Source of the DNA: Nemertoderma westbladi
Lineage: Eukaryota; Animalia; Xenacoelomorpha
Reading direction: 5' to 3'
NCBI GenBank assembly: GCA_032718475.1
Contig: JAUCBJ010007403.1
Coordinates: forward strand, 1-52,607
DNA: 52,607 bases
Shown: positions 22,516 through 48,711 of the stretch, piece after piece
Layout: each line of letters begins with the position of its first letter
How positions within the stretch are numbered: the stretch's first letter is position 1
Notes under the pieces: generated by a model
Told to the model about the DNA's origin: nothing
Seen by the model: the letters and a program-made list of their open reading frames with translations, nothing else
Database searches by the model: none
Made by a program: the position numbers and the translations under genes

Positions 22516-22782
22516 CCCCCCCCCCTCCCCCCAGGTTGTATACCCATCCTGTCATCACTATTTTTGCTTAGAAATACAGTGTCCATGTTCTGATTCTGCC
22601 GGCTTTTAATTTATTAACGTAACCAAATTGTAACGTATAATAAACTTAATTATAGTTATAGAATTATATTCCCTAAATACCGTGGATTTTCAAAATTTTA
22701 TTTTATTCGAATTAACTTTGTAAAGATTGCTTTGAGTTCTCATTCGTATTGGTTCTATCATTTGTACATCTATCGGTCAAGT

Positions 22783-22869
22783 GGTTCAGTAGCTCAGTCG
22801 GTAGAGCGTTGGAAATTATATGTGTAGTAGGTATTGAGTTCAAATCCTAGTAAGTGCGAATTATTTTTT
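22783..22869 (+). ncRNA. tRNA-derived Pol III-like unit in LTR U3 (not a functional tRNA)
   Basis: A box TAGCTCAGTCGGTAGAGC, B box GAGTTCAAATCC and a T6 run at 22864-22869; acceptor and anticodon stems do not pair. Confidence 0.55.
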
Positions 22870-22919
22870 GTGTAGAATTTCAACTCATTTAAATTAACCG
22901 CTACAAATTAATTGCATTT

Positions 22920-23100
22920 GTCTGTACCAATGAGACTGTAGTTATTTGATTGTAACCAATGTCGTGCAAGTTATATATTAGCTGGACCAATAGCTATCTT
23001 TAAAACCTTGTTAGAACCCATAGAACAATCGAGAATTTTCTCGATTGATTGCGGCACAAATTTAGTATATAAAGGTGCGATTCGTTCATTAGTTATCTCA
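22920..23100 (+). promoter_or_regulatory. LTR Pol II promoter: three CCAAT boxes and TATATAAA (23066-23073)
   Basis: Motifs read directly; candidate poly(A) signals AATAAA at 23217 and 23799. Confidence 0.55.
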
Positions 23101-24574
23101 ATCACAATCACAATATCCTATATCTTATATCTCAATCTTTCTCAGATTATCTTATCAATATTCTGTCGTGCTTAGTTTATTCTCAGATTACATTGTATTA
23201 TAATTGTATCTTCTGTAATAAAGTCAGAATATTCTCTCAGCCTTTCTATCTGTTTTACTATGGATTCACTACGGTGAACAAACTCAGGGACAGGATGGCC
23301 GGCTAGAGATCGGGCCGCAGCAATGAACGGGAACATCACGGGAATGTAGACGAGAGACAACCCGCAATACCATTTAGAGTTATTCGCCCATCGCCTGAAA
23401 GGTTAGACAGCGTTCGATCCTTGCTACCTAAGTATAAGACCAAAAGATCAAAAGGTAGACGTAGTGACACGCTGTAAGCCCAAAATTACATCATAGGGAC
23501 TGTACTGTCTTGATTCAGGAAAACCCACAGTAGACCTTCACATTCCTACGGGGAGGGAGAGCGCAGGCAGATACTAGTACGCAGATAGGACGTAGGCACA
23601 CCGGTACAAGGCATACACATTGGTTAGGGTGCAGCAAACTGTACGCTTAACTCTTGCTAAGTACAGGTGCGTGTGCGACTATTTGTAGTACGACAGTGTC
23701 CATTGCATTAGAACTTGTAGGCTAGGGGGGTTGCTGTGTTTTCACCTGAATTGGGATTGTACCGTTCAGGCGGTAGGGCAGTTTACGTACTAGGCGCAAA
23801 TAAATTGAGGCTATCAGGGATACTAACATCTACCGTGTCCCCGCCAACGCCCTAATAGGAAGTTACCCGGACTACCTGGGTGACTAAAATTCTAGATAGG
23901 AGCCAGGATAGCTATTAGTACCCGTACGCCTACAGTAGTAAACTAACACATCTCTTCTTAGTATCAGGGACCTGGTACCAAAAATTGCCGAATTCTGGGC
24001 GTAGTATTAACCTTATGCCTGGATTTGAGTCCTGGAAATACGCAAGAGGGGAAGGAACCTTATCATTCGTGAGTATTGGACCTACAAGTTACAAAATTAG
24101 AATATTCGTAAAATGCACACCGTACCCAGTAATTATATATGTGAAGGAGCAAAACTGCTTTTGACCGTTCAGAATTAACACACGCGCGTTAGAAATTATT
24201 TACACCTCGAAATATATAAAATTAACTTTGTCCGTACTGTGCTTTGCCCGCTAGTTAGACATCTCCAAATATCTGCCTCTGTACCTAGCTAGCGTCCCTT
24301 TGCCCAACCATATAAATCACACCGCGGCAAAGTGTACGAGCCCCTTAGTCCGTCAGTGAGTCAGCCTGATTTTAGGATTCGCTGCGCGGGATTTGTTTTA
24401 TCGAAGTTTGTCTGCTCGTAGACTGTTTTCTGCCTCACCGGTTATAAGAGATCGATACTGCAATATATTCGCTTACTTAGAGTTTACTGTTTTGGTGAGA
24501 AGGTCGGATTTATGATTTGATTTACAAACTTTACAGTAAGGATATTGCAGGTATTGTTACCGTCTCTTCCAATA

Positions 24575-24585
24575 GTAGGAATGTG
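24575..24585 (+). promoter_or_regulatory. Putative primer-binding site GTAGGAATGTG (self-priming type)
   Basis: Abuts the 5' LTR, lacks the TGG of a tRNA PBS, and is the exact reverse complement of CACATTCCTAC at 23539-23549. Confidence 0.6.
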
Positions 24586-25380
24586 TTTTACTGAACTACG
24601 GTTCGGTAGGACTAAAGTTATTTGAAAATTTTGTATTTTGAGGTAAAAAAATTTATATTTGATTAGCTAAGTGCTAATTTTTTGAAATAAAATTTGATTT
24701 GAACCGCGTGTAAAATATTTTTGGAATTGAATACCGGTGTTTAAAAAGGGTTTAAATACCATATTGTACCGGTATTTTCGTAAAGTAAAACCTAACTCTT
24801 TTGTTTTTTCAGGATTCAGAACTCATTTCTAGACTGTAACGGGAGCAAGACCGTGTTTAGCAAGTTTGGGAGATAGATAACTCAACAACTTTGGTTGGGA
24901 AAATCGCGTTTCGTCCGCAACGTTAAAAACGGAAAGGTTCACGTCCGGTTTGTATCTGGGAATCTGTTTTTCTGGAGAATTATTGGAGTGGGTGAGTTCG
25001 AAAAGTTGCATAAATAAGTTAGGCATTACCGTATTAGTTAAAATTATTGTGGGTTCCACTGTCTCAAGTATTTATGCATTCCGTACGATTTCTTTGTTCA
25101 TTGCTGAATTAGTCCGTATTATTGTATTTAATTTACCTTTTGATAACGCATATCGTTATCCGATTTATTTGTTATAAAATTGGCCGCTAGGCTAATTTTA
25201 TTATATACTTATTCCGTGACATTTATTTGCTGTAAAATTGGCCGTTTAGGCTAATTTTATCCATCTGCTATAAAATCGGCCGGTAGGCTAATTTTATATG
25301 ACTGTAACTAGTACCGTTTAGATAAAATACGGTAAACTCGATACTTTGACACTCACTTTACTTGACTTACAACTACCAAA

Positions 25381-25944
25381 ATGAGTGACAAACAAGACTA
25401 TACAAAGAATACACCTACCGACTATGACTCGTGTGACGCGGATAAGTCAGCAGCGGAAGGACAACAGGGGAAGACTCGCGAGCCTACCGAACCTACACCG
25501 TGTGCGTCACCAGTACATCCAACGGGAGTACCGGATGCCGTAGTACGAGGCGACGGCAGGACCGAGGACTTTCTAACTGTTCCGCAACCTAGATATAGGG
25601 AATCGGAAATGGTAAGTTCAGCAGGAAGCACAGAAAGTGTGGTTAGAAGCGTCGGAGGATATATGGCGCATATAACCAGGAGTATTGGGGAAGGCCAACG
25701 CACATTAGACGAGTTGACCGCTCCGATGTCTCGATTCGAATTCTACACCCTCCAGGTTAGAGTGCAAACTAGAGTACACAAGTCCGTAGATAACCTAATT
25801 GGTCTACAAGATCTAGCTAGACAGAGACAGGACATGGATACTCAACTTAGAATCCTCGAGAAACTAATGATCGCTAGAGAGAAACTGATTCAGTTTAAGT
25901 CGACGATTAGACAGATACAACAGGAACAAGCAGTTGTTAGGTGA
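25381..25944 (+). CDS. N-terminal gag segment (ORF1a) of the BEL element
   Basis: ATG in good context; RSVGGYMAHITR is typical of BEL gag N-termini; overlaps the +1-frame polyprotein, which is open from 25889. Confidence 0.7.
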   Translation: MSDKQDYTKNTPTDYDSCDADKSAAEGQQGKTREPTEPTPCASPVHPTGVPDAVVRGDGRTEDFLTVPQPRYRESEMVSSAGSTESVVRSVGGYMAHITRSIGEGQRTLDELTAPMSRFEFYTLQVRVQTRVHKSVDNLIGLQDLARQRQDMDTQLRILEKLMIAREKLIQFKSTIRQIQQEQAVVR

Positions 25945-28900
25945 GTCAGTTTCGGACGAATTATTACAACCCAAGGAAGAACAGGAACTGTACCGACTGG
26001 ATGGACAATTGAAACACCTGACGGACCACTTACGCATGTGCGGCGAAGACGTCGGCGATTTGGAAACCGTGCCGGAATATACGAGGGAAACTTCATTCGC
26101 ACAAATCGAATCGGCACCGGGAATACTAAATCAATCGCTGGTAAGTATTCGTAGCGAAATCTGCGAGGGAAGTATGGTCACGTCGGAAGTTGCCCGACAA
26201 CAGCAAGAATTCTACCAACAACAACGAGAAATCGAGGAACAAGCTCAACTTCTAGTGATGCAGGCAGCAGTAGAGGAAGAGAAGCTGCGCGTTGTAAATG
26301 TAGCGAGAATCTCTCATCTACAGGAACAAGCTGAATTAGAAGCAGCTCAAGTAGAAAGGTTAGAGGTAGACATCGCCCAACAAACGGCAGCGGTTGATTT
26401 AGCGCAACAAAACGCAGCGGTCGAGTTAGAGCGACAGATGGCAGCGACTGATTTGGAGCGACAAAACGCAGCGGCTGATTTGGAACGACAAAACGCAGCG
26501 GCTGATTTGGAACGACGAAACGCAGCGGTCAAGTTAGAGCGACAAATGGCAGCGGCGGAATTAGAGCGACGAAACGCAGCGGCTGATTTAGAGCGACGAA
26601 ACGCAGCGGCGGAATTGGAACGAGAAAGGTTAGTTTCGGAAGCACGGGCCGAAATGAAAACACGGCAAATAAAGGCTCAATCCGCTATACGACAAGCGGA
26701 GTTTGAGGCGCAACGACAACAAACGGAACAACGAGAGAAGACAGCTAAACTTCATTTCGAACTTGAGAAGAAGGCGAGAGAAGTAGCCGAAGCCAAGGAA
26801 AATCTGGATCTTCTAGCCCGCGATCGATCAATGAGATCTCGAGACGGACATGACTTGGACCAGATAGAGGTAAGACATCGCCAAATTCAGGAACGGAAGA
26901 AGGAAGGAAGTGTGGGAGCACCCGGACGGGAACGACAATTAGTAAAGGACTTGTGTCAACGATTCCCACAGGTAACTCATATGTTTGCACCAGTTACGAC
27001 TAAGGAACCTGTTTCGATTGCGGGTAGTAGTAACATTTCTCCTATCCATGGTGCGACGGAACACAGGTTTGTTATTCCGGACAAGTTTACACCGCCAAGA
27101 GCAACGTCGTCGCCCATTCCGAAAGTCAAGGTAAGTAACCCACCGATTACGGATCGTAGTAGTTTATTGACCGGACCTGCGCTACTGACGACAAAACAGG
27201 TGAGTCCACCGTCGACACCTAAACCCGTTACACACTACGCTTACCCAATGACGTTTCGACCAACAAGGCCTTTGGATTCAAAAGCGGTCGTCCGACCACC
27301 GTTTCAGTTTACATCGCAATCTACGACTTCGAGGAAGACTTGTGAGCCTACCGAACAACGGAGAACAGTGGATACGCGACCGTTCAATCAGTTTACATCG
27401 CAATCTACGACTTCGAGGAAGACTTGTGAGCCTACCGAACAACGGAGAACAGTGGATACGCGACCGTTCAATCAGTTTACATCGCAATCTACGACTTCGA
27501 GGAAGACTTGTGAGCCTACCGAACAACGGAGAACAGTGGATACGCGACCGTTCAATCAGTTTACATCGCAATCTACGACTTCGAGGAAGACTTGTGAGCC
27601 TACCGAACAACGGAGAACAGTGGATACGCGACCGTTCAATCAGTTTACATCGCAATCTACGACTTCGAGGAAGACTTGTGAGCCTACCGAACAACGGAGA
27701 ACAGTGGACGATGTTCCGAAACGGAACGTTAGAATTCGAACGACGCAACGGACGCGAGCACGTCGACCACCATATCCAGATGATAGTAGTACTTCAAGCG
27801 AATCGGATTACCCGAAACGCGAGGTATTTAGAACAGGGGCGGCCGATGAATACAAACGCGAGCGTTCAGACAACTCCTTTGCAGACAATCCTCCACAGAA
27901 TACACCAACACAGAAGGCGTTACAACCAACGGACGCAATTAGTACACAACAGTTCGCCGACATCCTGCGACCAGTTGTCAATAAGTTGGCTCAGATCGAG
28001 GAACGTCTGGAGGAAGGTTACACCGACAGTTCGAGAAATTCCGAATTCGAACACAATAGACACCTGAAGGAACCACAAAGACCGGTACCTTCAAACCCCA
28101 CATCGTATCAGGGAAAAGCGCCAAGAAGGGATATCAACAAGGTTACCAACCAAGGACGCGAAACTCTGAACGTTGCCGAGGAGATAGCGAAATTCGCAGC
28201 CAGACAGGGATTGCCGGTACAACAACCACCGAAGTTTTCCGGTAGTTCAAAACACTGGCACACATTCGTAGACTATATCGAATCCCAGATCGCCGTGTGC
28301 GCCTTTACATCACGGGAGAAGTTTAATTACCTGCTTCAAACGTTGTCAGGAGAACCTAAACGTTTGGCGGAGACTTTCGTCGGTGTACCGGACGCTTTCG
28401 AACTAGCGTACGATCGTTTAACTTCGATATACGGAGGTACAGTGAGCATGGCCAGGTCAGTAATAGAGGAACTCTGTAAGGGAGGGGCTATCACTAAACC
28501 CGTCGACTTACTAAAACTAGCTGACGTGATCAAGAACGCTATCACTACCTTAAGATCAATTGGACAACTTGATTACGGGAATACCCCTACAGTCCTATTA
28601 AAGATAATAGGACGACTCCACCATCGACTTCGTCGGGAGTGGAGGAAGGTCGAATACCAGCGAGAAGAGCGGGGAGGATTCTTAAAATTAGAAGATGTGT
28701 ACCTTTTAATATCTAGGGAGGCGGTAGTAGAAACTCGATCTAACTACACCGACCAGCACATCGTGGCAGAAGGGATCACATTGCCATCCTCCAACCGACA
28801 AAAACCCCAGACAACATCCACTAAGACGGCCACTTACACCACACCGACGGAATCACGACAATTCTCAGACGGAGGTAGGGTATCTGCGCCCATTGGGACA

Positions 28901-31900
28901 AAACAGACGAGACAACAACTCGGTACCGACTTCAGCGGCTGCCAATACTGCGAGCATCTAGGTAAGCGGTATATCGGTCACAAGTTACGAGGTTGTCGAC
29001 AATTTCGCGAGTTGAACTCGGAAGAACGACGGCTGCAAATACGGCCATTGGACTCTTGTTGGCGGTGTACGCGACACGGACACGTCCGTAAAGATTGCCC
29101 AAATACCGACACTTGTCCATCCTGTGGACGCAACCACGACGGTCTGCTCCACACAGACAGCCACACGCCGACGAAACGCTTCGCCAGGGAACACCCGGAA
29201 GCAGCAGCGAGATGTGATGCGGCTTACCGAAAACGAGAATCGAAAACGACTCCAACCTTCGTGACCCATATTGAGGATTGCTTCTCAGAACAATCCGGAT
29301 CGTCGGACGAAGAATCAGAAGACGACGACGAATATTCCAATGGAGACGAACAACCGTCGATCGCGCTTCTGACCACTGACCAACTGAAGGGATTCAGTGT
29401 AATCCCGATTAAGATCACTGGCACCAAGGGGAGTAAGAGGATCTACGCGATTCTAGATTCAGCCTCATCTCATAGCTACGTGGATGAAAAGATAGCTGAC
29501 GTAGTGACGGATCTTAAACAAGGTAAGCACGTCAGTTATACAGTAAGTAGTATGCACGGACAGCGTGCAATACCAGTGACACGAGTTAAGTTGGACTTAG
29601 ACTCTCTTCTTCCAAAATCGCAGCACAGCGAGAGGGAGAGGTCTTTGTTGCCCTTTAAAGATCTAACCTTTGCGGCCACGAAGGACTTTAGTAACCTACT
29701 AGGTCCAGTGCCGGAACAATCTCTAGAGGACCGTAAGTATTTCAGACACCTTGGTGTACCTGAATGTCCTGTCAATTATAGATCGGTAGCAATGCTGATC
29801 GGGACAGACCAATTCAACCTACATCAGGTGTGGGAAACCAGACCATCGGCAGTTGTAGCGGGAAACGCATACGCCTGCAGAACGCCGATAGGGTGGTATA
29901 CTCGAGCGCCTGTGCGCACACTAGACGTAAGTGACGAGGAAGACGATGTACAGAGTACATGTAGTTTATTAACTACAAATTCAATTCATTCCTTTTCACA
30001 CGACGTGAACCATACTACACTACAGTCGACAAAACATAACAGACGTGTAACTAGTATGATAAGTCACAAGGAGCAGCTAATTCACCAGGTGAGTTTAGAA
30101 CTTGGGGAGAAGACGAGTCAGCTAGAGATTCCATCGACGACAGATGATAGGCTTGCGAGTCTACCTACCCCAATAACCTCAACAGTGCCCGTCGAGATCG
30201 ATGATGACGCGTTGAGAAATCATCAGTTGGAACAAGCTGTACTAGACAAAGAATTAACGGAGAAGACTATCAGGTGGTTAGAACAAGATACAGCTGAACC
30301 TGGTAGCTACGAACCTTGTATGTCGGAACAGGAGAAACAATCTCTGAAGATCATGGAAGATACTATCCACCAGACGAAAGACGGACATTATGAGGTAGGG
30401 ATGTTATGGCGTAGCCAAAGCCCTAAACTCATAAACAACTATCCACTGGCTTTGAGACGTCTACACTCAATACGGCAACGTCTATTAAAGGACGAGAAAG
30501 CCCATCTGCAGTACAACACCCAGATGGAGACGTATTTGACTAAAGGATACGCTATCCGAATGACGAACCCGGAGATAGTGACTGACCAAACATATTACTT
30601 GCCACATCACTATGTGAGACACCCCGATAAACCAGACAAAGTACGCATAGTCAACGACTGTGCGGCTCTGTTTGAGGGAATGTCCCTCAATAGTGAGTTG
30701 ATGGATGGACCAAACATGAATAATTATCTAATGGGGGTGATTATGCGCTTCCGTCAGCGTCAAGTAGCTTTTACTTGTGACGTTGAAGCGATGTTTCACC
30801 AAGTGAGAGCGTTAGAGCGAGACAGAGACAGTTTGCGGTTCCTCTGGTACCCGGAAGGAGACTTAAGTCTACCACCGGCGACTTACCAAATGCAAGTTCG
30901 CGTTTTCGGTGCCAGAGACAGCCCAAATTGCACGATGTACGCCCTAAAGCAGGCCGCTAGAGATCAGAAACACCTATATGACCCAGAGATAATTAAAATC
31001 GTAGAACGTGACTTTTACGTCGATGACGGTTTACAGAGTTGCGACACAGTAGAACGTGCTACAACAGTAGCACATCAATTACGGGACTGCTTAGCGGGCG
31101 GAGGTTTTAACCTCACCAAATTCGCCTCAAACAGTGCCGAATTAGTAGACTCATTCGGAACGACTGAGCGTGGAGGTGGTGACATAGACCTAGAGTTCGA
31201 ACCACTACCGACGACTAAGGTGTTGGGGCTCTTTTGGGACCCAAACACAGACAACTTTCGAGTGAAGGTGAGACTGGACAGTCAAGAGAACACACTGACA
31301 AAGAGATCATGCTTGTCAAAGTTGAGCCGATTGTTCGATCCGTTAGGATTCATCAGTCCAGTAATACTGCAAGCCCGCATTTATATGCGCAGTATATGGA
31401 AGGATGGACTAACATGGGACGAGCCGATCTCATCAGACCAAGTGGACTTATGGAAGACCTGGGAGGCGGAATTATCTTCGCTAGAGGATTATTCCATACC
31501 CAGGGTTTACTTTCCATTACAAAGTACATTTCCTGACAACTTGGAACTACACTGTTTTTCTGACGCCAGTGACAACGGTTTTGGTGTGGCAGCGTACTTG
31601 CGCAGACAAGTAGAATCAGACGAGTTCGATGTTTCGCTCATTACTTCTAAGGCTAAGACCATGCCTACTAAGTATATGACGACACCACGAGCCGAGCTAC
31701 AAGCCGCAACCCTGTCAACCACCATCGTGAACCTCATACAGACAGAACTACAGTCGAGTTTACAGATATTTTATTGGACTGACGCGACGTTGGTTTTATT
31801 TTACATAAACAACGACACACTCGAATTCAAGACATTCGTAGCTAACCGTCGCGCGGAAATTCTAGACCGTTCAATAAAAGAGGATTGGCGACATTGCCCC

Positions 31901-34396
31901 GGACCACAAAACCCAGCTGATATTGCGTCGCGAGGAATGATGCCTGAGGAATTCTGTAAACCGGAGAACAAAGAATTTTGGCAACACGGACCCCAGTTCT
32001 TGCAGAAATCGACACAAGATTGGCCTCCGTTATACGACAACAAATCTAACACTATCCCAAAGGACGCCGAAATCAAGAAACCAAAAAAGGGGAAGACAAA
32101 GAAAAGGACGACGGTGGCAAAACTCAAGAAAAAACCGAAGGCGAAATGGAAAGATATAACTTCAAAGGTCAAGAGAGGAAGACTTGCGAGCCTTTCTACA
32201 CCAGACATATCGCCAGACGGTCAACCAGACGCATTACTAGACGGTCATCCAGACATTCTACCAGACACTAGTGACATACTGACAAACAGTAAAGCCGCAG
32301 TTTCCCTATTGGAGCGGCCTTCTATTGACAAACAACCAGATATGTTACCAGACGTATCGCCAGACACATTACTAGACAGTCGACTAGACATTTTGTCAGA
32401 AACATCACAAAATGTTCTACCGGACATTAGTAATTTATCGACTAACAGTAAAGCCGCAGTTTCCCTATTGGAGCGGCCTTGTATTGACAAACTACCAATT
32501 TTGACACACTTGAGCAACCATAAGCACGGTGAAACCTCATGTATTACAGATGTGGGTAGTACCTACGCTAATGTAAATACAGGTGTTACTTTGCGCTCAA
32601 GAGACATACCGAACCTGCAACCTATGGTGAGACCTGGGATTAATGTCGGCAGAAAAATTAGTTTACCGAAACCCACTGATCCCATAGAGTTCAAACCACC
32701 ATTAACGATCGACTTACAAAGTACTGACAATCAAGGTAAGAAGACAAAGAAGGACAAATTACTTGTAGACCCGGACGGATCAACAGTCAACAAGGGAATA
32801 CTTACCGGCGGACCCGTGGGCCCTTCTAGTAATTCAAAACCTTCCAAATTCTCAATTGACTTACCTGATGACGTCACAAATACTCATGTCGACCGTATTG
32901 TAAACTTAACAGATTCTTGGTCGAACGCTTGCCGAAAATTAGCGTGGATTGTACGTTTTGTACAATACGTTAAAGGCAAACGCGACTTTACACGTCGACT
33001 TACATTGGCTGAGATTGACAGGTGTGAAATTATATTAATTCGCCATTATCAACTGCGATATTTCGCGCGCGAATTCACATCCATAAATCAAGGTCAAACA
33101 ATCAAGTCGTCACCAATACTGAGTTGGAGTCCGATAATTTATAATGGCTTAATTTGTCATAAATCTCGGCTTCAAAACATTGACTTTAACACAAACTTTG
33201 GGTACCCAATAATAATACCGCAACATCACGAACTACAACGTGCAATGATACTGGACGCACATTTACATCTAAAACACGCTGGAAGACACCACTGTCTTTC
33301 CTACTTACGTACAAGATTTGTATTAATTAGACCCAGTAAAGCATTAAGTTCAGTGACACGTACGTGTATTATTTGTAAAAAGGTACATTCTAGAATAGGT
33401 ACCCAAGAAATGAGTGAACTACCACAAGCACGACTTCAAGCATTCAAACCACCTTTTACAGAGACTGGAATTGATTGCTTTGGTCCCATACATACGAAAC
33501 GTGGACGTATACTAGTAAAACGCTGGGGACTGATTTTCACATGTATGTCCAGTAGGGCAGTTCACATTGAACGTGTGATGGATCTTTCCACCAACGCGTT
33601 TATACTAGCACTGCGGCGATTTATCGCTAGACGCGGACTAGTGAAATGCTTGTACTCAGACCAAGGGACAAACTTCGTTGGTGCTCGGAATGAGATTGCT
33701 AGAGCCTTTAAGAAATTAGATCATGATCAAATCTCGAACGAACTGCAACCTCACAAGATCGTTTGGAAGTTTAATCCTCCAGATAGTCCTTGGAGAGGCG
33801 GAGTCTGGGAGAGATTGATTAGATCTATAAAGACAGCCATGGCAAAGGTCATTCCAGTAAACCACATACTGACAGACGACCAACTGACAACATTGTTTGT
33901 TGAAATCGAGGCAATACTAAATACTAGACCAATAGTATTAGTACCCGATGACAAACAATCTCAGTTCGCTTTGACACTGGCACACCTGCTAATGCAGGCA
34001 CCGACCACTTTGACGCCGATTTCTATTCCAATAGAAAGCGACAGCTACGGTAGAAAAGCGTGGAAAATCACGCAACTACTGGCTAACAAATTCTGGGAAA
34101 TATGGCAAAACCATTATTTGCCCTCTATTTCTGCCAGAACAACATGGTACAATAACACCCGCGCATTAAAGCCGGGAGATCACGTGCTGTTGGCAGAAGT
34201 GAATCTAAAAAGACGCTTCTGGATAACAGGTGTAATTTTAGCCACACATCCATCTATGGATGGAGTGACAAGGACTGTGACAGTACGGACAATTGACGGT
34301 CGTACAGTAGACAGACCGACTCAACGTCTCGTACTTCTTGAAGAGACTCGTAACGAGTCTGGAGACTACAAATCTCCACCTAATACTAGTAAATAA
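25934..34396 (+). CDS. BEL/Pao Gag-Pol polyprotein (gag, triple Cys knuckle, aspartic protease, RT, RNase H, integrase)
   Basis: PPKFSGSSKHW (gag); CQYC..H..C / CWRCTRHGHVRKDC / CPSCGRNHDGLLH; AILDSAS (PR); DFYVDDG (RT); CFSDASDNGFG (RH); H..H..CIIC, GIDCFGP, YSDQGTNF and GGVWER (IN). Confidence 0.97.
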   Translation: MLGESVSDELLQPKEEQELYRLDGQLKHLTDHLRMCGEDVGDLETVPEYTRETSFAQIESAPGILNQSLVSIRSEICEGSMVTSEVARQQQEFYQQQREIEEQAQLLVMQAAVEEEKLRVVNVARISHLQEQAELEAAQVERLEVDIAQQTAAVDLAQQNAAVELERQMAATDLERQNAAADLERQNAAADLERRNAAVKLERQMAAAELERRNAAADLERRNAAAELERERLVSEARAEMKTRQIKAQSAIRQAEFEAQRQQTEQREKTAKLHFELEKKAREVAEAKENLDLLARDRSMRSRDGHDLDQIEVRHRQIQERKKEGSVGAPGRERQLVKDLCQRFPQVTHMFAPVTTKEPVSIAGSSNISPIHGATEHRFVIPDKFTPPRATSSPIPKVKVSNPPITDRSSLLTGPALLTTKQVSPPSTPKPVTHYAYPMTFRPTRPLDSKAVVRPPFQFTSQSTTSRKTCEPTEQRRTVDTRPFNQFTSQSTTSRKTCEPTEQRRTVDTRPFNQFTSQSTTSRKTCEPTEQRRTVDTRPFNQFTSQSTTSRKTCEPTEQRRTVDTRPFNQFTSQSTTSRKTCEPTEQRRTVDDVPKRNVRIRTTQRTRARRPPYPDDSSTSSESDYPKREVFRTGAADEYKRERSDNSFADNPPQNTPTQKALQPTDAISTQQFADILRPVVNKLAQIEERLEEGYTDSSRNSEFEHNRHLKEPQRPVPSNPTSYQGKAPRRDINKVTNQGRETLNVAEEIAKFAARQGLPVQQPPKFSGSSKHWHTFVDYIESQIAVCAFTSREKFNYLLQTLSGEPKRLAETFVGVPDAFELAYDRLTSIYGGTVSMARSVIEELCKGGAITKPVDLLKLADVIKNAITTLRSIGQLDYGNTPTVLLKIIGRLHHRLRREWRKVEYQREERGGFLKLEDVYLLISREAVVETRSNYTDQHIVAEGITLPSSNRQKPQTTSTKTATYTTPTESRQFSDGGRVSAPIGTKQTRQQLGTDFSGCQYCEHLGKRYIGHKLRGCRQFRELNSEERRLQIRPLDSCWRCTRHGHVRKDCPNTDTCPSCGRNHDGLLHTDSHTPTKRFAREHPEAAARCDAAYRKRESKTTPTFVTHIEDCFSEQSGSSDEESEDDDEYSNGDEQPSIALLTTDQLKGFSVIPIKITGTKGSKRIYAILDSASSHSYVDEKIADVVTDLKQGKHVSYTVSSMHGQRAIPVTRVKLDLDSLLPKSQHSERERSLLPFKDLTFAATKDFSNLLGPVPEQSLEDRKYFRHLGVPECPVNYRSVAMLIGTDQFNLHQVWETRPSAVVAGNAYACRTPIGWYTRAPVRTLDVSDEEDDVQSTCSLLTTNSIHSFSHDVNHTTLQSTKHNRRVTSMISHKEQLIHQVSLELGEKTSQLEIPSTTDDRLASLPTPITSTVPVEIDDDALRNHQLEQAVLDKELTEKTIRWLEQDTAEPGSYEPCMSEQEKQSLKIMEDTIHQTKDGHYEVGMLWRSQSPKLINNYPLALRRLHSIRQRLLKDEKAHLQYNTQMETYLTKGYAIRMTNPEIVTDQTYYLPHHYVRHPDKPDKVRIVNDCAALFEGMSLNSELMDGPNMNNYLMGVIMRFRQRQVAFTCDVEAMFHQVRALERDRDSLRFLWYPEGDLSLPPATYQMQVRVFGARDSPNCTMYALKQAARDQKHLYDPEIIKIVERDFYVDDGLQSCDTVERATTVAHQLRDCLAGGGFNLTKFASNSAELVDSFGTTERGGGDIDLEFEPLPTTKVLGLFWDPNTDNFRVKVRLDSQENTLTKRSCLSKLSRLFDPLGFISPVILQARIYMRSIWKDGLTWDEPISSDQVDLWKTWEAELSSLEDYSIPRVYFPLQSTFPDNLELHCFSDASDNGFGVAAYLRRQVESDEFDVSLITSKAKTMPTKYMTTPRAELQAATLSTTIVNLIQTELQSSLQIFYWTDATLVLFYINNDTLEFKTFVANRRAEILDRSIKEDWRHCPGPQNPADIASRGMMPEEFCKPENKEFWQHGPQFLQKSTQDWPPLYDNKSNTIPKDAEIKKPKKGKTKKRTTVAKLKKKPKAKWKDITSKVKRGRLASLSTPDISPDGQPDALLDGHPDILPDTSDILTNSKAAVSLLERPSIDKQPDMLPDVSPDTLLDSRLDILSETSQNVLPDISNLSTNSKAAVSLLERPCIDKLPILTHLSNHKHGETSCITDVGSTYANVNTGVTLRSRDIPNLQPMVRPGINVGRKISLPKPTDPIEFKPPLTIDLQSTDNQGKKTKKDKLLVDPDGSTVNKGILTGGPVGPSSNSKPSKFSIDLPDDVTNTHVDRIVNLTDSWSNACRKLAWIVRFVQYVKGKRDFTRRLTLAEIDRCEIILIRHYQLRYFAREFTSINQGQTIKSSPILSWSPIIYNGLICHKSRLQNIDFNTNFGYPIIIPQHHELQRAMILDAHLHLKHAGRHHCLSYLRTRFVLIRPSKALSSVTRTCIICKKVHSRIGTQEMSELPQARLQAFKPPFTETGIDCFGPIHTKRGRILVKRWGLIFTCMSSRAVHIERVMDLSTNAFILALRRFIARRGLVKCLYSDQGTNFVGARNEIARAFKKLDHDQISNELQPHKIVWKFNPPDSPWRGGVWERLIRSIKTAMAKVIPVNHILTDDQLTTLFVEIEAILNTRPIVLVPDDKQSQFALTLAHLLMQAPTTLTPISIPIESDSYGRKAWKITQLLANKFWEIWQNHYLPSISARTTWYNNTRALKPGDHVLLAEVNLKRRFWITGVILATHPSMDGVTRTVTVRTIDGRTVDRPTQRLVLLEETRNESGDYKSPPNTSK
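26385..26625 (+). repeat. 27-bp coding repeat (AAADLERQN)n, predicted coiled coil in gag
   Basis: About 9 imperfect units in the translation. Confidence 0.85.
27305..27708 (+). repeat. 84-bp perfect coding tandem repeat, ~5 copies (FTSQSTTSRKTCEPTEQRRTVDTRPFNQ)
   Basis: Period 84 seen directly (27333, 27417, 27501, 27585, 27669). Confidence 0.95.
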
Positions 34397-35053
34397 TTAG
34401 GAGTTTACAAATAGATTTCCACGTACCTGTACACCGTAGTAAGGACAGCGGTAGAATTCCATTGTCTTTATATGTGAACATTGAGGGTAGTACCCTTATG
34501 TGTCACATAGGAGCGGGATTTGTAGGTATAAGAAATGGAATTCTACTTGGAACTCACAATATTGAGACATTTTCGAAATTTTAGACAATCCATTTGGATT
34601 TGAAAATTTTTAAAAATTTCTCCAGTGAATAGATTTCAGGGTACAGTCGGGTGGAACTTAAAATTAGAGAAACAAGAGAGGAAGACTTGCGAGCCTTTCT
34701 TAAAAATTTTAATTAAATTTTACACGGTCTTGTTTCAATAAGTTACGTCAAAATAGACTCCCCTATATTTATTACTAATTCTTGATTGCTTATTTTCTGA
34801 TAATAGTTTGGGATCAAAAGTGAGTATTTTAGACTCACAGCCAGTTTAGCCCAAATTCGTTTTTACTTCGGCAAAAAATTTTAGATAAGAAGCAGCGTGT
34901 CATTAAAGAAACCCTAGATCTTAGGCTATGGGTAGGAGGTTAGAGCGTTGTCGAGCCCAAAGGGCAGACGAAACTCTCACGTCTCCTCACAACTAACTAC
35001 AAACTCTGTTGTATTCCCTCTAGTAGTAATGATTATGTAACTACACCCTAATT

Positions 35054-38000
35054 ATGGAGAAAGGGATACAAGGAGAACCGAGATGGGGATATGATATCCA
35101 AGAGGAGGCAGCAGCGCCATTCGAAAGATTTGGAGCCAAGGATTATACTATATTTGGTATAAAAGAATTATCGGAAAGTACAGCGAAACTCGCGAGAACT
35201 AAATATGACTCGAATGTATTAAAGAGAAGGCAAAACGCATTAAACGAAAGAATCGAAAGTTTGCGCCAAACCTTCAACGAACTTTACCCGTACGATGCTT
35301 TGTGTGATACGGGAGACATTAGCGAAGACCCCGATACTGAAATTAGTCGTTTGTATCATACCATGCAATACCTAAAGGCACACGAACCTATGCCCGCGGT
35401 ACGCGATGAATTCGATGGAATGCATCTTTACAGACGAACTCGAGGGGACGATAGAGAAACCAAGGAAGCATTTTCAGTTTATAAACTTTATTATCAATGC
35501 GGTTCTTGTATGCGCGAACAACGAAATGCGATTCCGATGCGTTTGAATAAGGAAAATCCCGAACCGATATTGGCGAGGTGTTCGAATCATCAACAACTAC
35601 GCTACCAGGAAGGAGGGTATCCTTTATCGAATCCATATCATTCATTTGCTATGACCGGACCAAAGGCGGGAGAAACTGTCATTTACCCACCTAAGGTTGT
35701 TGAACCCGATGTATTTGAACTTACGCTGGACGAGGCGAATCAGTCAACCCGTGAAAAGAAAGAAGCTCTTAGCCTATACAGAGCCTATAAGGCTTTCGAG
35801 AAAGGTGAGATGGAAGAATGGGGTGGAAGACTCGCGAGCCTACCTTGCCATTGGACGTCACACGATCAAACTTCAGCTAAGGAGATGACACCGGAAGTTT
35901 TCGAGAGCATAAACTTTGCTCAAAACGTTATTCAGAGACTACAGATTGCATCCCCGGAGAGGCCAAGAGAAATGCAACCGTATAGTACTTCAACTACGAA
36001 ACCATTGAGTACGACACTCAATTTCCCTATTAGTATACCAGTCCGACAGGATACGACGTACGAAATACCCATCGTGGATCATCCAGAAATCATTTCAAAC
36101 TTGGAGTTTCTTCCTGCAGTTGTTTTCAGCGATATGAGTAAGATATATGATTTACGTAGACATATTACTCAAAAGGTCGTGCACAACGTTCCACCTCATA
36201 TTCAAGATTTCAAGGAACTGGATAGAGCTGGTGCCGACATAGCTCCGAGTAATCTGAAAGGATATCTGACCAAGACGATTCGTTTATGGATTGGAACCGG
36301 AACCTTCGAGTCGGATACAGATATCGCCGCAGATTGGCGAGGTAAGGTTATTCGTTTCGATGAGGATAAGGACATAGAGAAGATTTGGCAACCTTCGGAA
36401 GAATTGTTGGATGAATGGACTAGGACGTTTAGATCGTTTCAGGAAAACGGTTATATGTTTTACGATAACGAGGGCGGCAGTCATCAGCAGAGTTTGACTT
36501 CTAAGACTATACAGATTAGAGCGGCGGACGGAGTCCTGCACGTTTTCAGTAGACAGAGGAGCGACAAACGAATGCCGATACCTCCAGCGAATACAAAGCG
36601 ACACCATCTTATCACCGATATAGTAAAGAAGATGGACCAAGCTTGTAATATCGACGCTAGAATGCTACCGAAGATGGTAAGAAACATGATTTTAGATAAA
36701 ACTGTTGTAAAGGTTGGATCAGGAGTAAGGGAGGATTTAATTAGCGACTTCGCCGGCATGACGGACAGCGATGACCGACTACCGACACCATACGTCGACA
36801 CTCGACCTCTTATTCTGTGGTCTATAGAACAGGGATATTTTCGTGAGTATAATACTCAGAAGACTGGAACTGGATACATTTCCTACCTGTTATTCAATTG
36901 GGATTATAAGGAAGGTAAAAGAAACAAGTATATTGAAACTTATGGAGAAGGTGATACTCCAGATATGAGCGAGTTTGAATCACAGCTTAAATGGAGAGGA
37001 TGCGTGTATTGGGCTATTACGTCACCTCCAAGAGCGGTCTTACAATATTATTTAGCAATAGAGTCGTCAGTGAATGTTTGCCTAATCGCCGACATTGTGT
37101 CTCGGACTCTCAAAAGACATCCACTTTGTCTCGGAGAAGATCATACGTTCTACATGGAAGGGAGAATTCGTACCGACGTGTTTAGACGATTCCTTGAACC
37201 CTTCTACAACTCCGACGCTCAGTGTAATGCCTTTACTCGAGCAGGATTTAGCATATTTCGAGACGTGTATCTTCGCTGTGCGGGATCTCTTATCGAAAGA
37301 CCATCTATGTTTACACTGTTACCCTATGAAGGAGAACGTATCGTGGAAATTACGGATGAATCACGGCAGACGCGCGCGCCTATCGGTCACCTTGGTGATG
37401 AATTCGAAGTAACTACTACGATCGCCGACGATCCTTTAGAGGAACTTCTTGAGATAGAAAGGAACCTCCCGAAGAAATCTCAGACGGAGATTCGACAACT
37501 TGAAGCAACAGATGCTATAGTTTGTATACAACCTTCAGAAACCTACCAACCCATAGACCCAGATGATTACGATTATAGTATGGGAGGAAGCGCTCGACCG
37601 ATTGGAGATCTTATATACGAACGAGTGTGGTACCCTGCCAATACGATGTGTAGTAAATGTGGCGTCGCTGGACATCATATGGCAAAGTGCAGTGGAAAGC
37701 ACATTACTACGACTCAGCTAATCTGTGGATGGTGTGGGGATCAAGGGTCTCATACCTTTTATACTTGCTGGAGATTTATGGCTCAATGTACTTACTGCAA
37801 TATAAAGGGACATCGAGCATCTGAATGCCAACTAAGAGACATACCTTATGAACACGAATCTGTAAAACTCGTGAGGAAGTTATTTGATGAGTGGGAAGAT
37901 TTAGCCGACGAACATGTATCGGCACAGAGAAGACGGTTTCTGATGAGAGCGCATCTCGGATTTTGGGCGGTAAATCCCCAGACGATGATGTCGGAAGGAT

Positions 38001-38779
38001 ATATCTCCGCTATGCCCCAATATGACGAACTTATCGAGGTTGTCGATATTTTGCCCCACGACAGCGGATTCCGAGTGGTGCGCGAGTATCTGTTACAAAT
38101 TCACCCGGATAACAAAAACACGTGGAATTTTCAGAAAGTCGTTAATCGGATTACGTATGGTGAATTCGATCGTTTCCGAACTGAAAAACGGAATAAAGGA
38201 GCTTGGTTAACCGTCGCATGGGCGTACCGAGCCGCGTTTTACCACAAACGTATACGAGCGAGCGTATTCGAGGAAGAAGAGGTCCTAGAGGCGACAAATA
38301 TACCAGCCACTCCGGTTGCGCCGTCTGCACGTCACCCTCGGGAGGACGGGCAGGGTAGGATCATACGGGTCCAGAAGGTGGGCCAACAATTGAAGAAAAT
38401 TATTAATGTAGAAGAACGCAAGGGAGTTGAGCCGACTATTCGAGTTACTCGGGATACGGTATCACTTCCAAGAGAACCAGTAGGAGGATCGGGACATACA
38501 CCAGCTGATCAACAGGGGGCGCAAGCTACTCTTGGGTCTGCGTCGTCCGCTTCTCGCGCGTTCCCAGACGTTCTACCAACTGTAGTGACAACTGATCGGT
38601 CACGAGGAATCGGTCGAGGTTTTGGGATGCTAAATAGACGAATTTGCGAGGAAATAGTAGCACCGTCTCTCAACGTCCCAAGTAAACCAGTGACTCGCCC
38701 CATTAGTCCCATATCGCGAGCAAAGTCACCTGTGCGCAGATTTCGAGGACGCGGCAGGGCTCGATCAACTAAGCGATAA
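35054..38779 (+). CDS. Accessory ORF3 of the BEL element: DEDDy (WRN/RNase D/EXD-like) 3'-5' exonuclease domain plus three CCHC zinc knuckles
   Basis: Intact 1241 aa between pol and the 3' LTR. ExoI FYDNEG..TIQIR; ExoII LPKMVRNMILDKTVVKVGSGVREDL; YVDT; ExoIII-like YYLAIE. Knuckles CSKCGVAGHHMAKC, CGWCGDQGSHTFYTC, CTYCNIKGHRASEC. Basic C-terminal tail; no signal peptide or TM segment, so not env. Confidence 0.85.
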   Translation: MEKGIQGEPRWGYDIQEEAAAPFERFGAKDYTIFGIKELSESTAKLARTKYDSNVLKRRQNALNERIESLRQTFNELYPYDALCDTGDISEDPDTEISRLYHTMQYLKAHEPMPAVRDEFDGMHLYRRTRGDDRETKEAFSVYKLYYQCGSCMREQRNAIPMRLNKENPEPILARCSNHQQLRYQEGGYPLSNPYHSFAMTGPKAGETVIYPPKVVEPDVFELTLDEANQSTREKKEALSLYRAYKAFEKGEMEEWGGRLASLPCHWTSHDQTSAKEMTPEVFESINFAQNVIQRLQIASPERPREMQPYSTSTTKPLSTTLNFPISIPVRQDTTYEIPIVDHPEIISNLEFLPAVVFSDMSKIYDLRRHITQKVVHNVPPHIQDFKELDRAGADIAPSNLKGYLTKTIRLWIGTGTFESDTDIAADWRGKVIRFDEDKDIEKIWQPSEELLDEWTRTFRSFQENGYMFYDNEGGSHQQSLTSKTIQIRAADGVLHVFSRQRSDKRMPIPPANTKRHHLITDIVKKMDQACNIDARMLPKMVRNMILDKTVVKVGSGVREDLISDFAGMTDSDDRLPTPYVDTRPLILWSIEQGYFREYNTQKTGTGYISYLLFNWDYKEGKRNKYIETYGEGDTPDMSEFESQLKWRGCVYWAITSPPRAVLQYYLAIESSVNVCLIADIVSRTLKRHPLCLGEDHTFYMEGRIRTDVFRRFLEPFYNSDAQCNAFTRAGFSIFRDVYLRCAGSLIERPSMFTLLPYEGERIVEITDESRQTRAPIGHLGDEFEVTTTIADDPLEELLEIERNLPKKSQTEIRQLEATDAIVCIQPSETYQPIDPDDYDYSMGGSARPIGDLIYERVWYPANTMCSKCGVAGHHMAKCSGKHITTTQLICGWCGDQGSHTFYTCWRFMAQCTYCNIKGHRASECQLRDIPYEHESVKLVRKLFDEWEDLADEHVSAQRRRFLMRAHLGFWAVNPQTMMSEGYISAMPQYDELIEVVDILPHDSGFRVVREYLLQIHPDNKNTWNFQKVVNRITYGEFDRFRTEKRNKGAWLTVAWAYRAAFYHKRIRASVFEEEEVLEATNIPATPVAPSARHPREDGQGRIIRVQKVGQQLKKIINVEERKGVEPTIRVTRDTVSLPREPVGGSGHTPADQQGAQATLGSASSASRAFPDVLPTVVTTDRSRGIGRGFGMLNRRICEEIVAPSLNVPSKPVTRPISPISRAKSPVRRFRGRGRARSTKR

Positions 38780-39460: not shown

Positions 39461-39684
39461 TGGTGAATTTAATTTAGATTTATATTGTACTTACTTAGTA
39501 AAGCCTTAAATACGTAAAGTTTGAATTTGTAATTATTTTGTATCGAATCATTACGTAGAAAGGAAGTATTGTTTGAAATTTAATTGTAAATATGTAAGTA
39601 CGCCCTAAGTATTCTATAGTTTGATTGATTATTGGTGAAAACCGTATATTTTATGCACGATAATATCCTGTTTTCATGGAGCGG

Positions 39685-41602
39685 TATAGAATTATATTCC
39701 CTAAATACCGTGGATTTTCAAAATTTTATTTTATTCGAATTAACTTTGTAAAGATTGCTTTGAGTTCTCATTCGTATTGGTTCTATCATTTGTACATCTA
39801 TCGGTCAAGTGGTTCAGTAGCTCAGTCGGTAGAGCGTTGGAAATTATATGTGTAGTAGGTATTGAGTTCAAATCCTAGTAAGTGCGAATTATTTTTTGTG
39901 TAGAATTTCAACTCATTTAAATTAACCGCTACAAATTAATTGCATTTGTCTGTACCAATGAGACTGTAGTTATTTGATTGTAACCAATGTCGTGCAAGTT
40001 ATATATTAGCTGGACCAATAGCTATCTTTAAAACCTTGTTAGAACCCATAGAACAATCGAGAATTTTCTCGATTGATTGCGGCACAAATTTAGTATATAA
40101 AGGTGCGATTCGTTCATTAGTTATCTCAATCACAATCACAATATCCTATATCTTATATCTCAATCTTTCTCAGATTATCTTATCAATATTCTGTCGTGCT
40201 TAGTTTATTCTCAGATTACATTGTATTATAATTGTATCTTCTGTAATAAAGTCAGAATATTCTCTCAGCCTTTCTATCTGTTTTACTATGGATTCACTAC
40301 GGTGAACAAACTCAGGGACAGGATGGCCGGCTAGAGATCGGGCCGCAGCAATGAACGGGAACATCACGGGAATGTAGACGAGAGACAACCCGCAATACCA
40401 TTTAGAGTTATTCGCCCATCGCCTGAAAGGTTAGACAGCGTTCGATCCTTGCTACCTAAGTATAAGACCAAAAGATCAAAAGGTAGACGTAGTGACACGC
40501 TGTAAGCCCAAAATTACATCATAGGGACTGTACTGTCTTGATTCAGGAAAACCCACAGTAGACCTTCACATTCCTACGGGGAGGGAGAGCGCAGGCAGAT
40601 ACTAGTACGCAGATAGGACGTAGGCACACCGGTACAAGGCATACACATTGGTTAGGGTGCAGCAAACTGTACGCTTAACTCTTGCTAAGTACAGGTGCGT
40701 GTGCGACTATTTGTAGTACGACAGTGTCCATTGCATTAGAACTTGTAGGCTAGGGGGGTTGCTGTGTTTTCACCTGAATTGGGATTGTACCGTTCAGGCG
40801 GTAGGGCAGTTTACGTACTAGGCGCAAATAAATTGAGGCTATCAGGGATACTAACATCTACCGTGTCCCCGCCAACGCCCTAATAGGAAGTTACCCGGAC
40901 TACCTGGGTGACTAAAATTCTAGATAGGAGCCAGGATAGCTATTAGTACCCGTACGCCTACAGTAGTAAACTAACACATCTCTTCTTAGTATCAGGGACC
41001 TGGTACCAAAAATTGCCGAATTCTGGGCGTAGTATTAACCTTATGCCTGGATTTGAGTCCTGGAAATACGCAAGAGGGGAAGGAACCTTATCATTCGTGA
41101 GTATTGGACCTACAAGTTACAAAATTAGAATATTCGTAAAATGCACACCGTACCCAGTAATTATATATGTGAAGGAGCAAAACTGCTTTTGACCGTTCAG
41201 AATTAACACACGCGCGTTAGAAATTATTTACACCTCGAAATATATAAAATTAACTTTGTCCGTACTGTGCTTTGCCCGCTAGTTAGACATCTCCAAATAT
41301 CTGCCTCTGTACCTAGCTAGCGTCCCTTTGCCCAACCATATAAATCACACCGCGGCAAAGTGTACGAGCCCCTTAGTCCGTCAGTGAGTCAGCCTGATTT
41401 TAGGATTCGCTGCGCGGGATTTGTTTTATCGAAGTTTGTCTGCTCGTAGACTGTTTTCTGCCTCACCGGTTATAAGAGATCGATACTGCAATATATTCGC
41501 TTACTTAGAGTTTACTGTTTTGGTGAGAAGGTCGGATTTATGATTTGATTTACAAACTTTACAGTAAGGATATTGCAGGTATTGTTACCGTCTCTTCCAA
41601 TA
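39685..41602 (+). repeat. 3' LTR, 1918 bp
   Basis: Copy of 22657-24574; preceded by a short purine-rich GGAGCGG (weak PPT) and followed by the TSD ATAGT. Confidence 0.95.
39811..39897 (+). ncRNA. tRNA-derived Pol III-like unit, 3' LTR copy
   Basis: Identical to 22783-22869. Confidence 0.55.
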
Positions 41603-48516: not shown

Positions 48517-48711
48517 GTGAGTCATTCATGAGACAATTTTAACAAGGATTGTTTGGCCTTCATTGTTGTGAGTCATTCATGTGAGAAGCATTGCTTGGTT
48601 AATAAAGACGCCTCTGAAACCTGTTCCTTTCCTTTAACGTATTACATTTAATTAACTTAACTCCTATGGGCAAACAATAACATATTTATTGTGATACAAA
48701 TACAATTACAT

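Follow-up and report, generated by a model that had tools for sequence, protein, structure and literature searches.

A BEL/Pao retrotransposon of Nemertoderma westbladi carrying a predicted, very divergent DEDDy-group exonuclease gene with zinc knuckles

Why exonuclease genes are retained in unrelated retroelements has been a standing question since the report on rotifers by Rodriguez et al. (2017, PMC5408684), in which a DEDDy ORF3 was described in the Juno1/2 and Vesta2/5 LTR retrotransposons and in Terminons, so that bdelloid DEDDy ORFs are common to unrelated retroelements, LTR and Penelope-like. The same question is raised by a 52,607-nucleotide stretch of Nemertoderma westbladi DNA (hereafter, the window), in which an initial annotation had placed an exonuclease and triple zinc-knuckle gene at the env position of a young BEL/Pao element. 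The gene, ORF3 (35054..38779; this and all other stranded features below lie on the forward strand), is an open frame of 1241 aa between pol and the 3′ LTR. It is uninterrupted, as the annotation had stated; the other five frames across 35054-38779 contain 47-82 stops, and the probability of such an open frame arising from composition is ~2e-33. ORF3 is an accessory gene that belongs to the element itself.

The element measures 18,946 nt (18.9 kb); its two LTRs are of 1918 nt each, and 5 nt are duplicated at the target site. The 5′ LTR (22657..24574), the termini of which are TA...TA and not TG...CA, is identical over all 1918 nt to the 3′ LTR (39685..41602). The left target-site duplication, ATAGT (22652..22656), recurs as an identical 5 nt at 41603-41607, and a loose end at 24574 in the run X3 contigs is consistent with the 5′ LTR boundary. 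Because the LTRs are identical and the flanking duplication is present, the element is very young, which bears out the earlier claim. A short purine-rich tract adjoining the 3′ LTR (39675..39684) is likely the polypurine tract. Among 40 listed of the 911 substitutions, 26 are synonymous and 2 fall within ORF3, so that the list is uninformative on selection in ORF3.

Gag-pol (25381..34396) comprises DUF1759, a triple Cys-His box, protease, RT (YVDD), Peptidase_A17, integrase H2C2 and DUF5641. In this copy, the 5′ part of gag is split around 25.9 kb between two frames, those of ORFs 25381-25944 and 25889-34396. Pfam matched Peptidase_A17 (E 6e-42), DUF5641 (E 3e-20) and DUF1759 (E 2e-10), and the motif order, PR-RT-RH-IN, is of the Pao type. 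The Cys-His boxes lie at 28940, 29057 and 29114, the third ending in His, and a triple box of this kind is named as a hallmark of BEL/Pao gag in the available part of PMC554778. Paired LTRs with a target-site duplication are also found, as in BEL/Pao, though with the atypical termini. As predicted by its gag-pol domains, their order, the Cys-His boxes and the LTRs, the carrier is a BEL/Pao element, as annotated. In common with the Belpaoviridae as profiled by the ICTV (PMC8742986), it has LTRs, a polypurine tract, the optional third ORF and the same gag-pol domains in the same order. Two typical traits of that family, which are not the basis of the grouping, do not fit: an 18-nt tRNA primer-binding site, which is not evident here, and a genome of 4.2-10 kb with LTRs of 0.2-1.2 kb, as against 18.9 kb and 1.9-kb LTRs (PMC8742986). 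The third ORF, moreover, is not env-like.

No env-type signal peptide or transmembrane anchor is evident in ORF3, the maximum 19-residue hydropathy being 1.38, inside an exonuclease helix; the N-terminus is charged. A CxxC...CxxH motif called previously is present at aa 149-179 (35498..35590) as a possible zinc site, in a segment where a second ORF3 copy (see below) has no similarity. The three CCHC zinc knuckles of the initial annotation are located at aa 866-879, 891-905 and 912-925 (37649..37828), with the patterns CX2CX4HX4C, CX2CX5HX4C and CX2CX4HX4C, respectively; three knuckles were reached in 0 of 20000 shuffles. The knuckle region matches zf-CCHC (E 8.5e-4), and its top matches, at E 0.007 or weaker, are with retroviral nucleocapsids. 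The C-terminal tail (38294..38776) is basic, with a net charge of +18, and rich in P/S/T/G/Q. Derivation of ORF3 as a duplicate of the element's gag was ruled out (best E 0.4).

A splice donor, GTGAGT (24992..24997), and a branch point, pyrimidine tract and AG acceptor (34990..35023) are predicted for the ORF3 message; a 3-codon upstream ORF, at 35029, lies ahead of the ORF3 start. In one DNA contig (run X3), the leader is joined to ORF3 from 24990 to 35023 with GT..AG boundaries, the shorter side being 29 letters only, and the joint coincides with the consensus donor and the pyrimidine-AG acceptor. The ORF3 message is thus probably spliced from the 5′ leader in the style of an env message, and a protein translated from a spliced message would be made apart from gag-pol and could act in trans.

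The predicted 3′-5′ exonuclease domain of the RNase D/WRN group spans aa 424-690 (36323..37123). The motifs listed at the outset were all located, with YDNEG starting at 36461, KVGSGVREDL at 36710, YVDT at 36791 and YYLAIES, which includes the Y-x3-E, at 37046; the predicted catalytic residues are D471 (36464), E473 (36470), D561 (36734), Y666 (37049) and E670 (37061). Unaided, MAFFT places D471, E473, Q487 and D561 on invariant columns of 34 references, so that the ExoI D-x-E (D471/E473) is aligned with its counterparts, and both residues are kept in the second copy. These two observations uphold the earlier choice of catalytic residues. At ExoIII, both copies have Y-x3-E, where D is found in 27 of 27 WRN-like references; the signature is therefore D-E-D-E-y and not canonical DEDDy. 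The proposed kinship with RNase D, WRN, EXD and Mut-7 stands but the canonical signature does not, and "intact" holds for the open frame and the retained predicted residues but not for the fourth acidic position, which is E. The domain also holds long insertions relative to the references.

Profile comparisons back the assignment in part. Pfam returned no PF01612 match above the curated cut-off for ORF3 or for the second copy, whereas 24 of 30 ESM Atlas feature matches belong to the PF01612 set (score 0.92). In NCBIfam, the ExoI stretch matched DnaQ weakly (E 0.02-0.04). When ORF3 alone was compared with DEDDy profiles, 5-12 of 1000 shuffles equalled its score, and the hhalign probability was 4-7%. 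Against 38 bacterial PF01612 sequences, a test with ordered blocks reached z 5.0-5.5, with 0 of 1000 shuffles as high, for short blocks that were picked post hoc with the query already seen and of which the ExoIII block alone scored below 0; D561, the ExoII aspartate, lies within the best-scoring block. With automatic long blocks, the same test gave no signal (z 0.3 to −0.7). A single-sequence AlphaFold model of the ORF3 region had a pLDDT of 31. A model seeded with 34 DEDDy sequences reached 68 and aligned with DEDDy structures at Z up to 12.7 (rmsd 3.2, 171 aligned), a fold ranking that the seeding makes circular. An alternative ExoI suggested by a WRN-like-only profile (aa 432; site aa 436-438) is absent from the second copy, and W653, which matched as the family tryptophan, is not kept there either.

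The second ORF3 homologue lies outside the element in the same window (15621..17463) and is 28% identical. It is broken by an in-frame stop (15843-15845) and by a frame break between ~16120 and 16200, and it retains ExoI (16011), ExoII, the ExoIII Y-x3-E and two knuckles. Taken by itself, this copy matched RNase D TIGR01388 in an unbiased library scan (E 6.4e-4, below the cut-off); its hmmsearch score exceeds 1000 of 1000 shuffles, and by hhalign it scores 41.9, where the highest of 100 shuffles reached 19.2. We consider it very probable that aa 424-690 fold as a highly diverged DEDDy domain of the RNase D/WRN group. The counterparts of D471, E473, D561, Y666 and E670 are all kept (5/5 predicted catalytic residues, P ~0.007), at an identity of 82/245 and with acidic residues overall kept at 13/33. 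Codon positions 1, 2 and 3 are 51%, 56% and 30% identical between the copies (505 codons). This comparison shows that the predicted catalytic residues were kept across two distant lineages, with a codon pattern of protein-level selection. No LTR pair was found flanking the second copy. In frame upstream of it is a gag-like stretch with Cys-rich knuckles (13599..14720), which from its motifs looks Mag/Gypsy-like; it is unrelated to the BEL gag, resembles the element weakly and at the knuckles only, and has no meaningful match in Pfam or PDB.

Homologues of ORF3 were sought widely. By phmmer, none was found among 1.84 billion representatives, and three word-index database searches, including near and shorter lengths and mixed alignment, returned nothing. 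PDB sequences, phages, and metagenome and viral contigs contained no homologue; plasmids yielded three chance matches (E 7-8) and prokaryote genomes a single 22-aa chance match. ESM Atlas gave no usable match for aa 690-1085, and the pol searches no usable neighbour locus. One could envision from this absence, and from the weak single-sequence profile scores, that ORF3 is a recently captured host passenger gene or that its exonuclease motifs arose by chance. Against this, a host WRN, EXD or Mut-7 would match Pfam strongly, which ORF3 does not; the codon positions of the second lineage, at 28% identity, differ in the way that prolonged selection on the protein produces; and contigs ~81% identical span the exonuclease domain in two runs. 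Passenger or chance origin is, we think, largely excluded.

Because the distant second copy retains the same predicted catalytic residues, the ORF3 exonuclease is likely active. A different view is that the domain is catalytically weak or dead and, as in EXD1 or Egalitarian, serves to bind or transport RNA; it might move element RNA or sequester silencing factors. The D-to-E change at ExoIII and the long insertions fit this view, as do the three RNA-binding knuckles with the basic tail, and inactive DEDD derivatives, Maelstrom and EXD1, feature in piRNA biology (PMC5408684). A dead domain, however, would not need five catalytic residues kept while third codon positions are near random, and we regard this explanation as unlikely.

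The acidic substitution has a parallel in the rotifer elements, which the initial annotation had named as a precedent; that precedent is in print, its carriers being the Juno and Vesta LTR clades and the Penelope-like Terminons (PMC5408684). There, too, an RNase D-like ORF occupies the env position of young elements, and one acidic position carries a D-to-E change (PMC5408684); in both cases activity and role are putative. By their description, beside which ORF3 is set here, the rotifer ORFs have the signature DEED and not D-E-D-E, and ORF3 differs in its BEL/Pao carrier, its 1241-aa length, its three CCHC knuckles and its long flanks. We found no published report of a DEDDy ORF3 in BEL/Pao, and the word "exonuclease" is absent from the main texts of PMC12440569, PMC3118150, PMC554778 and PMC13524379. 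ORF3 extends the known pattern of element-borne DEDDy genes to BEL/Pao.

The layout of ORF3 also resembles that of a cellular enzyme, Trypanosoma brucei RNase D (TbRND; PDB 7C42-7C4C), in which an exonuclease is combined with four RNA-binding CCHC fingers, a pairing called very unusual in the part of PMC7797062 available, where overexpression is also described to deplete guide RNAs. In both proteins, tandem CCHC fingers come after a 3′-5′ exonuclease domain, but TbRND is canonical DEDD with its four fingers close behind the domain, whereas the three of ORF3 lie ~175 aa downstream (PMC7797062, same part). This likeness is no proof of descent. Cer19 is itself a BEL/Pao element. A nematode DEDDy precedent, likewise named earlier, did not turn up in the literature searched; in the accessible part of PMC7084138, the nearest case is Cer19-ORF2 (Caenorhabditis C38D9.2, F15D4.5), which by description is likewise a separate CCHC-knuckle ORF between LTRs alongside gag-pol, expressed and strongly siRNA-targeted. 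The main text there contains "exonuclease" or "nuclease" 0 times, and ORF3 differs as a predicted nuclease.

What RNA might such an enzyme act on? One candidate is the element's own. The primer-binding site position (24575..24585) does not begin with TGG, and a tRNA 3′-end complement is thus not evident. Instead, an 11-nt stretch of the 5′ LTR (23539..23549) is the full complement of the 11 nt directly after that LTR, a match reached in 0 of 2000 LTR shuffles; the site is thereby complementary to the element's own LTR, as in Tf1-type self-priming. The duplex is predicted at ~ −25 kcal/mol against −19.7 for the best alternative within the LTR, and the bases following the candidate primer can pair with the U5 end. 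As far as the sequence can tell, this BEL/Pao element carries a Tf1-like self-priming signature in place of a tRNA site. Tf1 is a Ty3/gypsy element and is not known to encode a comparable ORF3. The likeness to Tf1/sushi self-primed retrotransposons, in the portion of PMC7175516 at hand, is an 11-nt self-complementary primer that replaces the tRNA; the candidate primer here, known from sequence, differs in lying ~1 kb upstream of its binding site. A TATA-like box at 23066 and AATAAA at 23217 and 23799 do not fix the transcript start. ARAGORN and Rfam gave no match for a tRNA-like stretch considered in U3.

The nuclease might therefore work inside the particle, trimming the self-primer after an endonucleolytic cut or shaping the 3′ end of the genomic RNA, with the knuckles, which resemble nucleocapsid fingers, bringing it in. 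The self-priming signature, including the U5 pairing and the missing tRNA-type site, was unmentioned in the initial annotation and gives primer trimming some added weight; if ORF3 does trim the primer, that would explain tRNA-free copying by a BEL/Pao element. On the other hand, the Tf1 primer is made by RNase H alone (PMC7175516, same portion), pairing is predicted for the bases that follow the primer on its 3′ side, which would suit a single-strand trimmer poorly, and the second copy is accompanied by another gag type. We hold this explanation to be rather doubtful. A role in DNA seems improbable: proofreading or end-processing of reverse-transcribed DNA, in the style of WRN exonuclease or coronavirus ExoN, might permit a larger genome. 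WRN and EXD2 can act on DNA, and both stand near the top of the seeded fold search. The element indeed has 18.9 kb against 4.2-10 kb (PMC8742986), but the ORF3 gene is separate from pol, the CCHC knuckles point toward RNA, the best unbiased family match is RNase D, and seeding of the alignment skews the fold ranking.

The explanation that we favour, tentatively and at somewhat less than an even chance, is that ORF3 would be an exonuclease, produced from a spliced message, that trims the small RNAs of host silencing or their precursors. It starts from what is observed, namely the ORF, its position, the knuckles and a second lineage with the five predicted catalytic residues. Given the fold and the splicing proposed above, it is rather likely that D471, E473, D561 and E670 bind two metal ions and that the knuckles grip single-stranded RNA and pass its 3′ end to the active site, in the way shown for trypanosome RNase D (PMC7797062, part available). 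If the enzyme is active, there is about an even chance that its substrate is a host guide RNA or precursor, in which case ORF3 would be a counter-defence factor. The different gag beside the second copy, together with the sharing among rotifer elements, fits a job independent of replication chemistry. The 2′-O-methyl group at the 3′ end of piRNAs blocks many 3′-5′ exonucleases and counts against the anti-silencing role. A further point against it comes from rotifers, in which small RNAs continue to cover the DEDDy-bearing families and no clear gain in copy number is seen (PMC5408684). We also entertain, as somewhat unlikely, the broader idea that D-E-D-E exoribonucleases with zinc knuckles form an old and fast-evolving element-borne family that passes between retrotransposon superfamilies, in this window a self-primed BEL/Pao element and one with another gag type. 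Encoded by an animal LTR retrotransposon, such an enzyme would suppress small-RNA silencing, its spliced message having been copied into DNA. Should ORF3 degrade guide RNAs, it would be a transposon-encoded counter-defence enzyme; as one unbroken ORF with named residues, it is usable for assay.

An ORF scan of the contig placed the accessory ORF (ORF3) at 35054-38779 on the forward strand, between the gag-pol gene and the 3′ LTR of a young BEL/Pao retrotransposon. Its 1241 stop-free codons agree with the initial annotation, as do the positions of the motifs and of three CCHC knuckles, a triplet that arose in none of 20000 shuffled sequences. Because neither a signal peptide nor a membrane anchor was evident in ORF3, we do not regard it as env. 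The LTRs (22657-24574 and 39685-41602) are 1918 nt long, do not differ from each other, and are flanked by a 5-nt target duplication. Their termini, at 22657 and 24574 in the 5′ LTR, are TA...TA rather than TG...CA and form an imperfect inverted repeat. Pfam matches to Peptidase_A17, DUF5641 and DUF1759 constitute the BEL/Pao set, and a motif scan found in gag the triple Cys-His box, a Pao hallmark according to an excerpt of PMC554778. The element spans 18,946 nt, roughly double the largest size given by the ICTV profile (PMC8742986), and its gag start is split in this copy over two frames near 25.9 kb. Gag also carries in-frame tandem repeats at 27304-27708 (84 nt × 4.8, perfect) and 26382-26610 (27 nt × 8.4), and an insert of ~400 aa separates RNase H from integrase in pol (about 32000-33100). 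A U3 stretch at 22785-22855, repeated in the 3′ LTR, shows by eye a tRNA-like A-box and B-box; ARAGORN and Rfam found nothing there, and the stretch may be the decayed remnant of a tRNA or SINE, serving as an insulator.

We then considered the exonuclease identity of ORF3 taken by itself. Pfam recognized the knuckles (zf-CCHC) but not the exonuclease domain that had been annotated. No homologue of ORF3 was found by a word-index protein search or among 1.84 billion representatives, PDB sequences, and metagenome and viral contigs. ESM Atlas features placed 24 of 30 hits in the PF01612 set with a score of 0.92, which shuffled proteins reach 4-10 times per 100. Reference DEDDy profiles were made from bacterial PF01612 genes, and in a PDB search the WRN-like profile retrieved WRN, EXD2, NrnC, Mut-7, RNase D, Rrp6 and trypanosome RNase D; ORF3 alone matched the reference profiles weakly, being equalled by 5-12 of 1000 shuffles. 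An ordered-block test gave no support with long automatic blocks, and z values of 4.0-5.5 with short motif blocks picked after the query had been seen. With a broad 38-sequence profile the blocks fell on the residues originally annotated, and no shuffle in 1000 did as well. MAFFT aligned D471, E473, Q487 and D561 with invariant reference columns; it did not align E670 with the ExoIII aspartate. AlphaFold gave no usable model from the single sequence; seeding with 34 DEDDy sequences gave a pLDDT of 68 and DEDDy fold matches, a result showing that the modelled domain is compatible with the fold and nothing beyond compatibility.

In our judgment the decisive evidence is a second copy, a broken ORF3 homologue outside the element (~15.6-17.5 kb) made up of an ORF at 16228 and the frames ahead of it. 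It covers aa 349-948 of ORF3 at 26-28% identity (tblastn E 5.5e-44), with a pairwise score of 470, where shuffled sequences reached at most 67; compared as DNA, it shows no similarity to the element. First, second and third codon positions are 51%, 56% and 30% identical, the pattern of long selection on a protein. An unsteered NCBIfam scan of this copy returned RNase D (E 6.4e-4 and 5.8e-3). When it was read through as protein with X at its two breaks, hhalign matched it to the broad profile with a probability of 87% (P 3.8e-6), and all shuffles scored lower. D471, E473, D561, Y666 and E670 are all kept, compared with 13 of the 33 acidic residues of the domain overall (P ~0.007 for catalytic retention). 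It is highly improbable, in our view, that ORF3 is a passenger or that its motifs resemble an exonuclease by chance, and a role for it as an RNA-binding pseudo-nuclease seems unlikely. The knuckle region keeps 11 of 15 Cys/His residues. Nothing in the second copy corresponds to the N-terminal 348 residues, which include CxxC...CxxH. The DEDDy assignment was upheld by the RNase D match and the retained catalytic residues, but not in its canonical signature: ExoIII has D in 27 of 27 WRN-like references and E in both copies. Because of this shared E, the family, judged from its residues, is a D-E-D-E variant outside the canonical signature, and very likely functions like a DEDDy enzyme. The second copy lies in frame after a gag-like stretch of another type, the two together occupying 13599-17463, and neither pol nor an LTR pair was found with them; the locus is either a deletion derivative of an other-superfamily element or a chimera.

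The stretch including ORF3 is present in five of nine listed sequencing runs. Copies were compared from four runs found with the ORF3-containing stretch, so that coverage of ORF3 is partly by choice. A single contig of run X3 crosses 35113-36999 without gaps and with 18 differences, and runs X1 and X2 hold ~81%-identical contigs over the exonuclease domain (e.g. 181 differences in 981 nt, with 4 gaps). The 12 indels listed, of 49 in all, lie outside ORF3; contig joints reveal copies with internal deletions within it. No listed contig bridges the pol and ORF3 coding regions. In one X3 DNA contig, whose short side has 29 letters, position 24990 is joined directly to 35023, and the stretch left out between them has GT..AG ends. 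The candidate donor is GTGAGT; the candidate acceptor, 30 nt ahead of the ORF3 ATG, comes with a pyrimidine tract and a CTAAC resembling a branch point. Because the joint sits on these sites, this one contig suggests that the ORF3 message was spliced and then copied back into DNA; it is possibly a non-autonomous LTR-ORF3-LTR derivative of the spliced message.

A Tf1-like self-priming signature occupies 23539-23557 and 24564-24585 of this BEL/Pao element. Directly 3′ of the 5′ LTR, 11 nt form a perfect complement to 23539-23549 (0 of 2000 shuffles match), and the bases following the complement are predicted to pair with the U5 end, giving a duplex of ~−25 kcal/mol (elsewhere in the LTR, the best window reaches −19.7). 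No tRNA-type site was found at the primer-site position. The predicted pairing is reminiscent of Tf1, in which 11 bases anneal and RNase H makes the cut (excerpt of PMC7175516). A narrower search of the mainly open-access literature, partly in excerpt, found no report of a self-primed BEL/Pao element. That the predicted nuclease processes the element's own RNA or self-primer is somewhat unlikely, and that it proofreads is quite improbable.

We tentatively favor a different role, mainly because the ORF is portable between elements: the second copy adjoins a gag-like stretch unrelated to the element's gag, and rotifer LTR and Penelope-like elements have DEDDy ORFs in common (PMC5408684). ORF3 would trim RNA 3′-5′, acting in trans, and would thereby counter small-RNA silencing; the whole chain, including activity, is possible rather than probable. 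Its layout matches that of trypanosome RNase D; according to excerpts of PMC7797062, the CCHC fingers of that enzyme bind the RNA on which its exonuclease acts, and guide RNAs are depleted when it is overexpressed.

The rotifer precedent mentioned in the initial annotation is in print: DEDDy ORF3s occur in the Juno and Vesta clades and in Terminons, with a DEED signature (D-E-D-E here) and no shown activity (PMC5408684), and are mentioned again in excerpts of PMC5718144, PMC6431247 and PMC6338049. Nematode Cer19-ORF2 has knuckles, with no nuclease reported in the main text of PMC7084138. No exonuclease ORF in a BEL/Pao element was found in the literature covered, mainly open-access main texts, within which such an ORF appears unreported.

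Elsewhere in the window, a 300-aa intronless ORF with C2 domains (7499-8401; E 1.5e-40) may have arisen as a processed copy from a synaptotagmin-like gene. Two reverse-transcriptase fragments of another retroelement type, with DUF6451 matches, lie at 10228-10755 and 19829-20791 (minus strand). A 476-aa ORF at 47101-48531 has no Pfam match and one hydrophobic stretch near its N-terminus. Satellites with 22-nt and 56-nt units occupy about 1-6.5 kb and about 48.6-50.8 kb, respectively.
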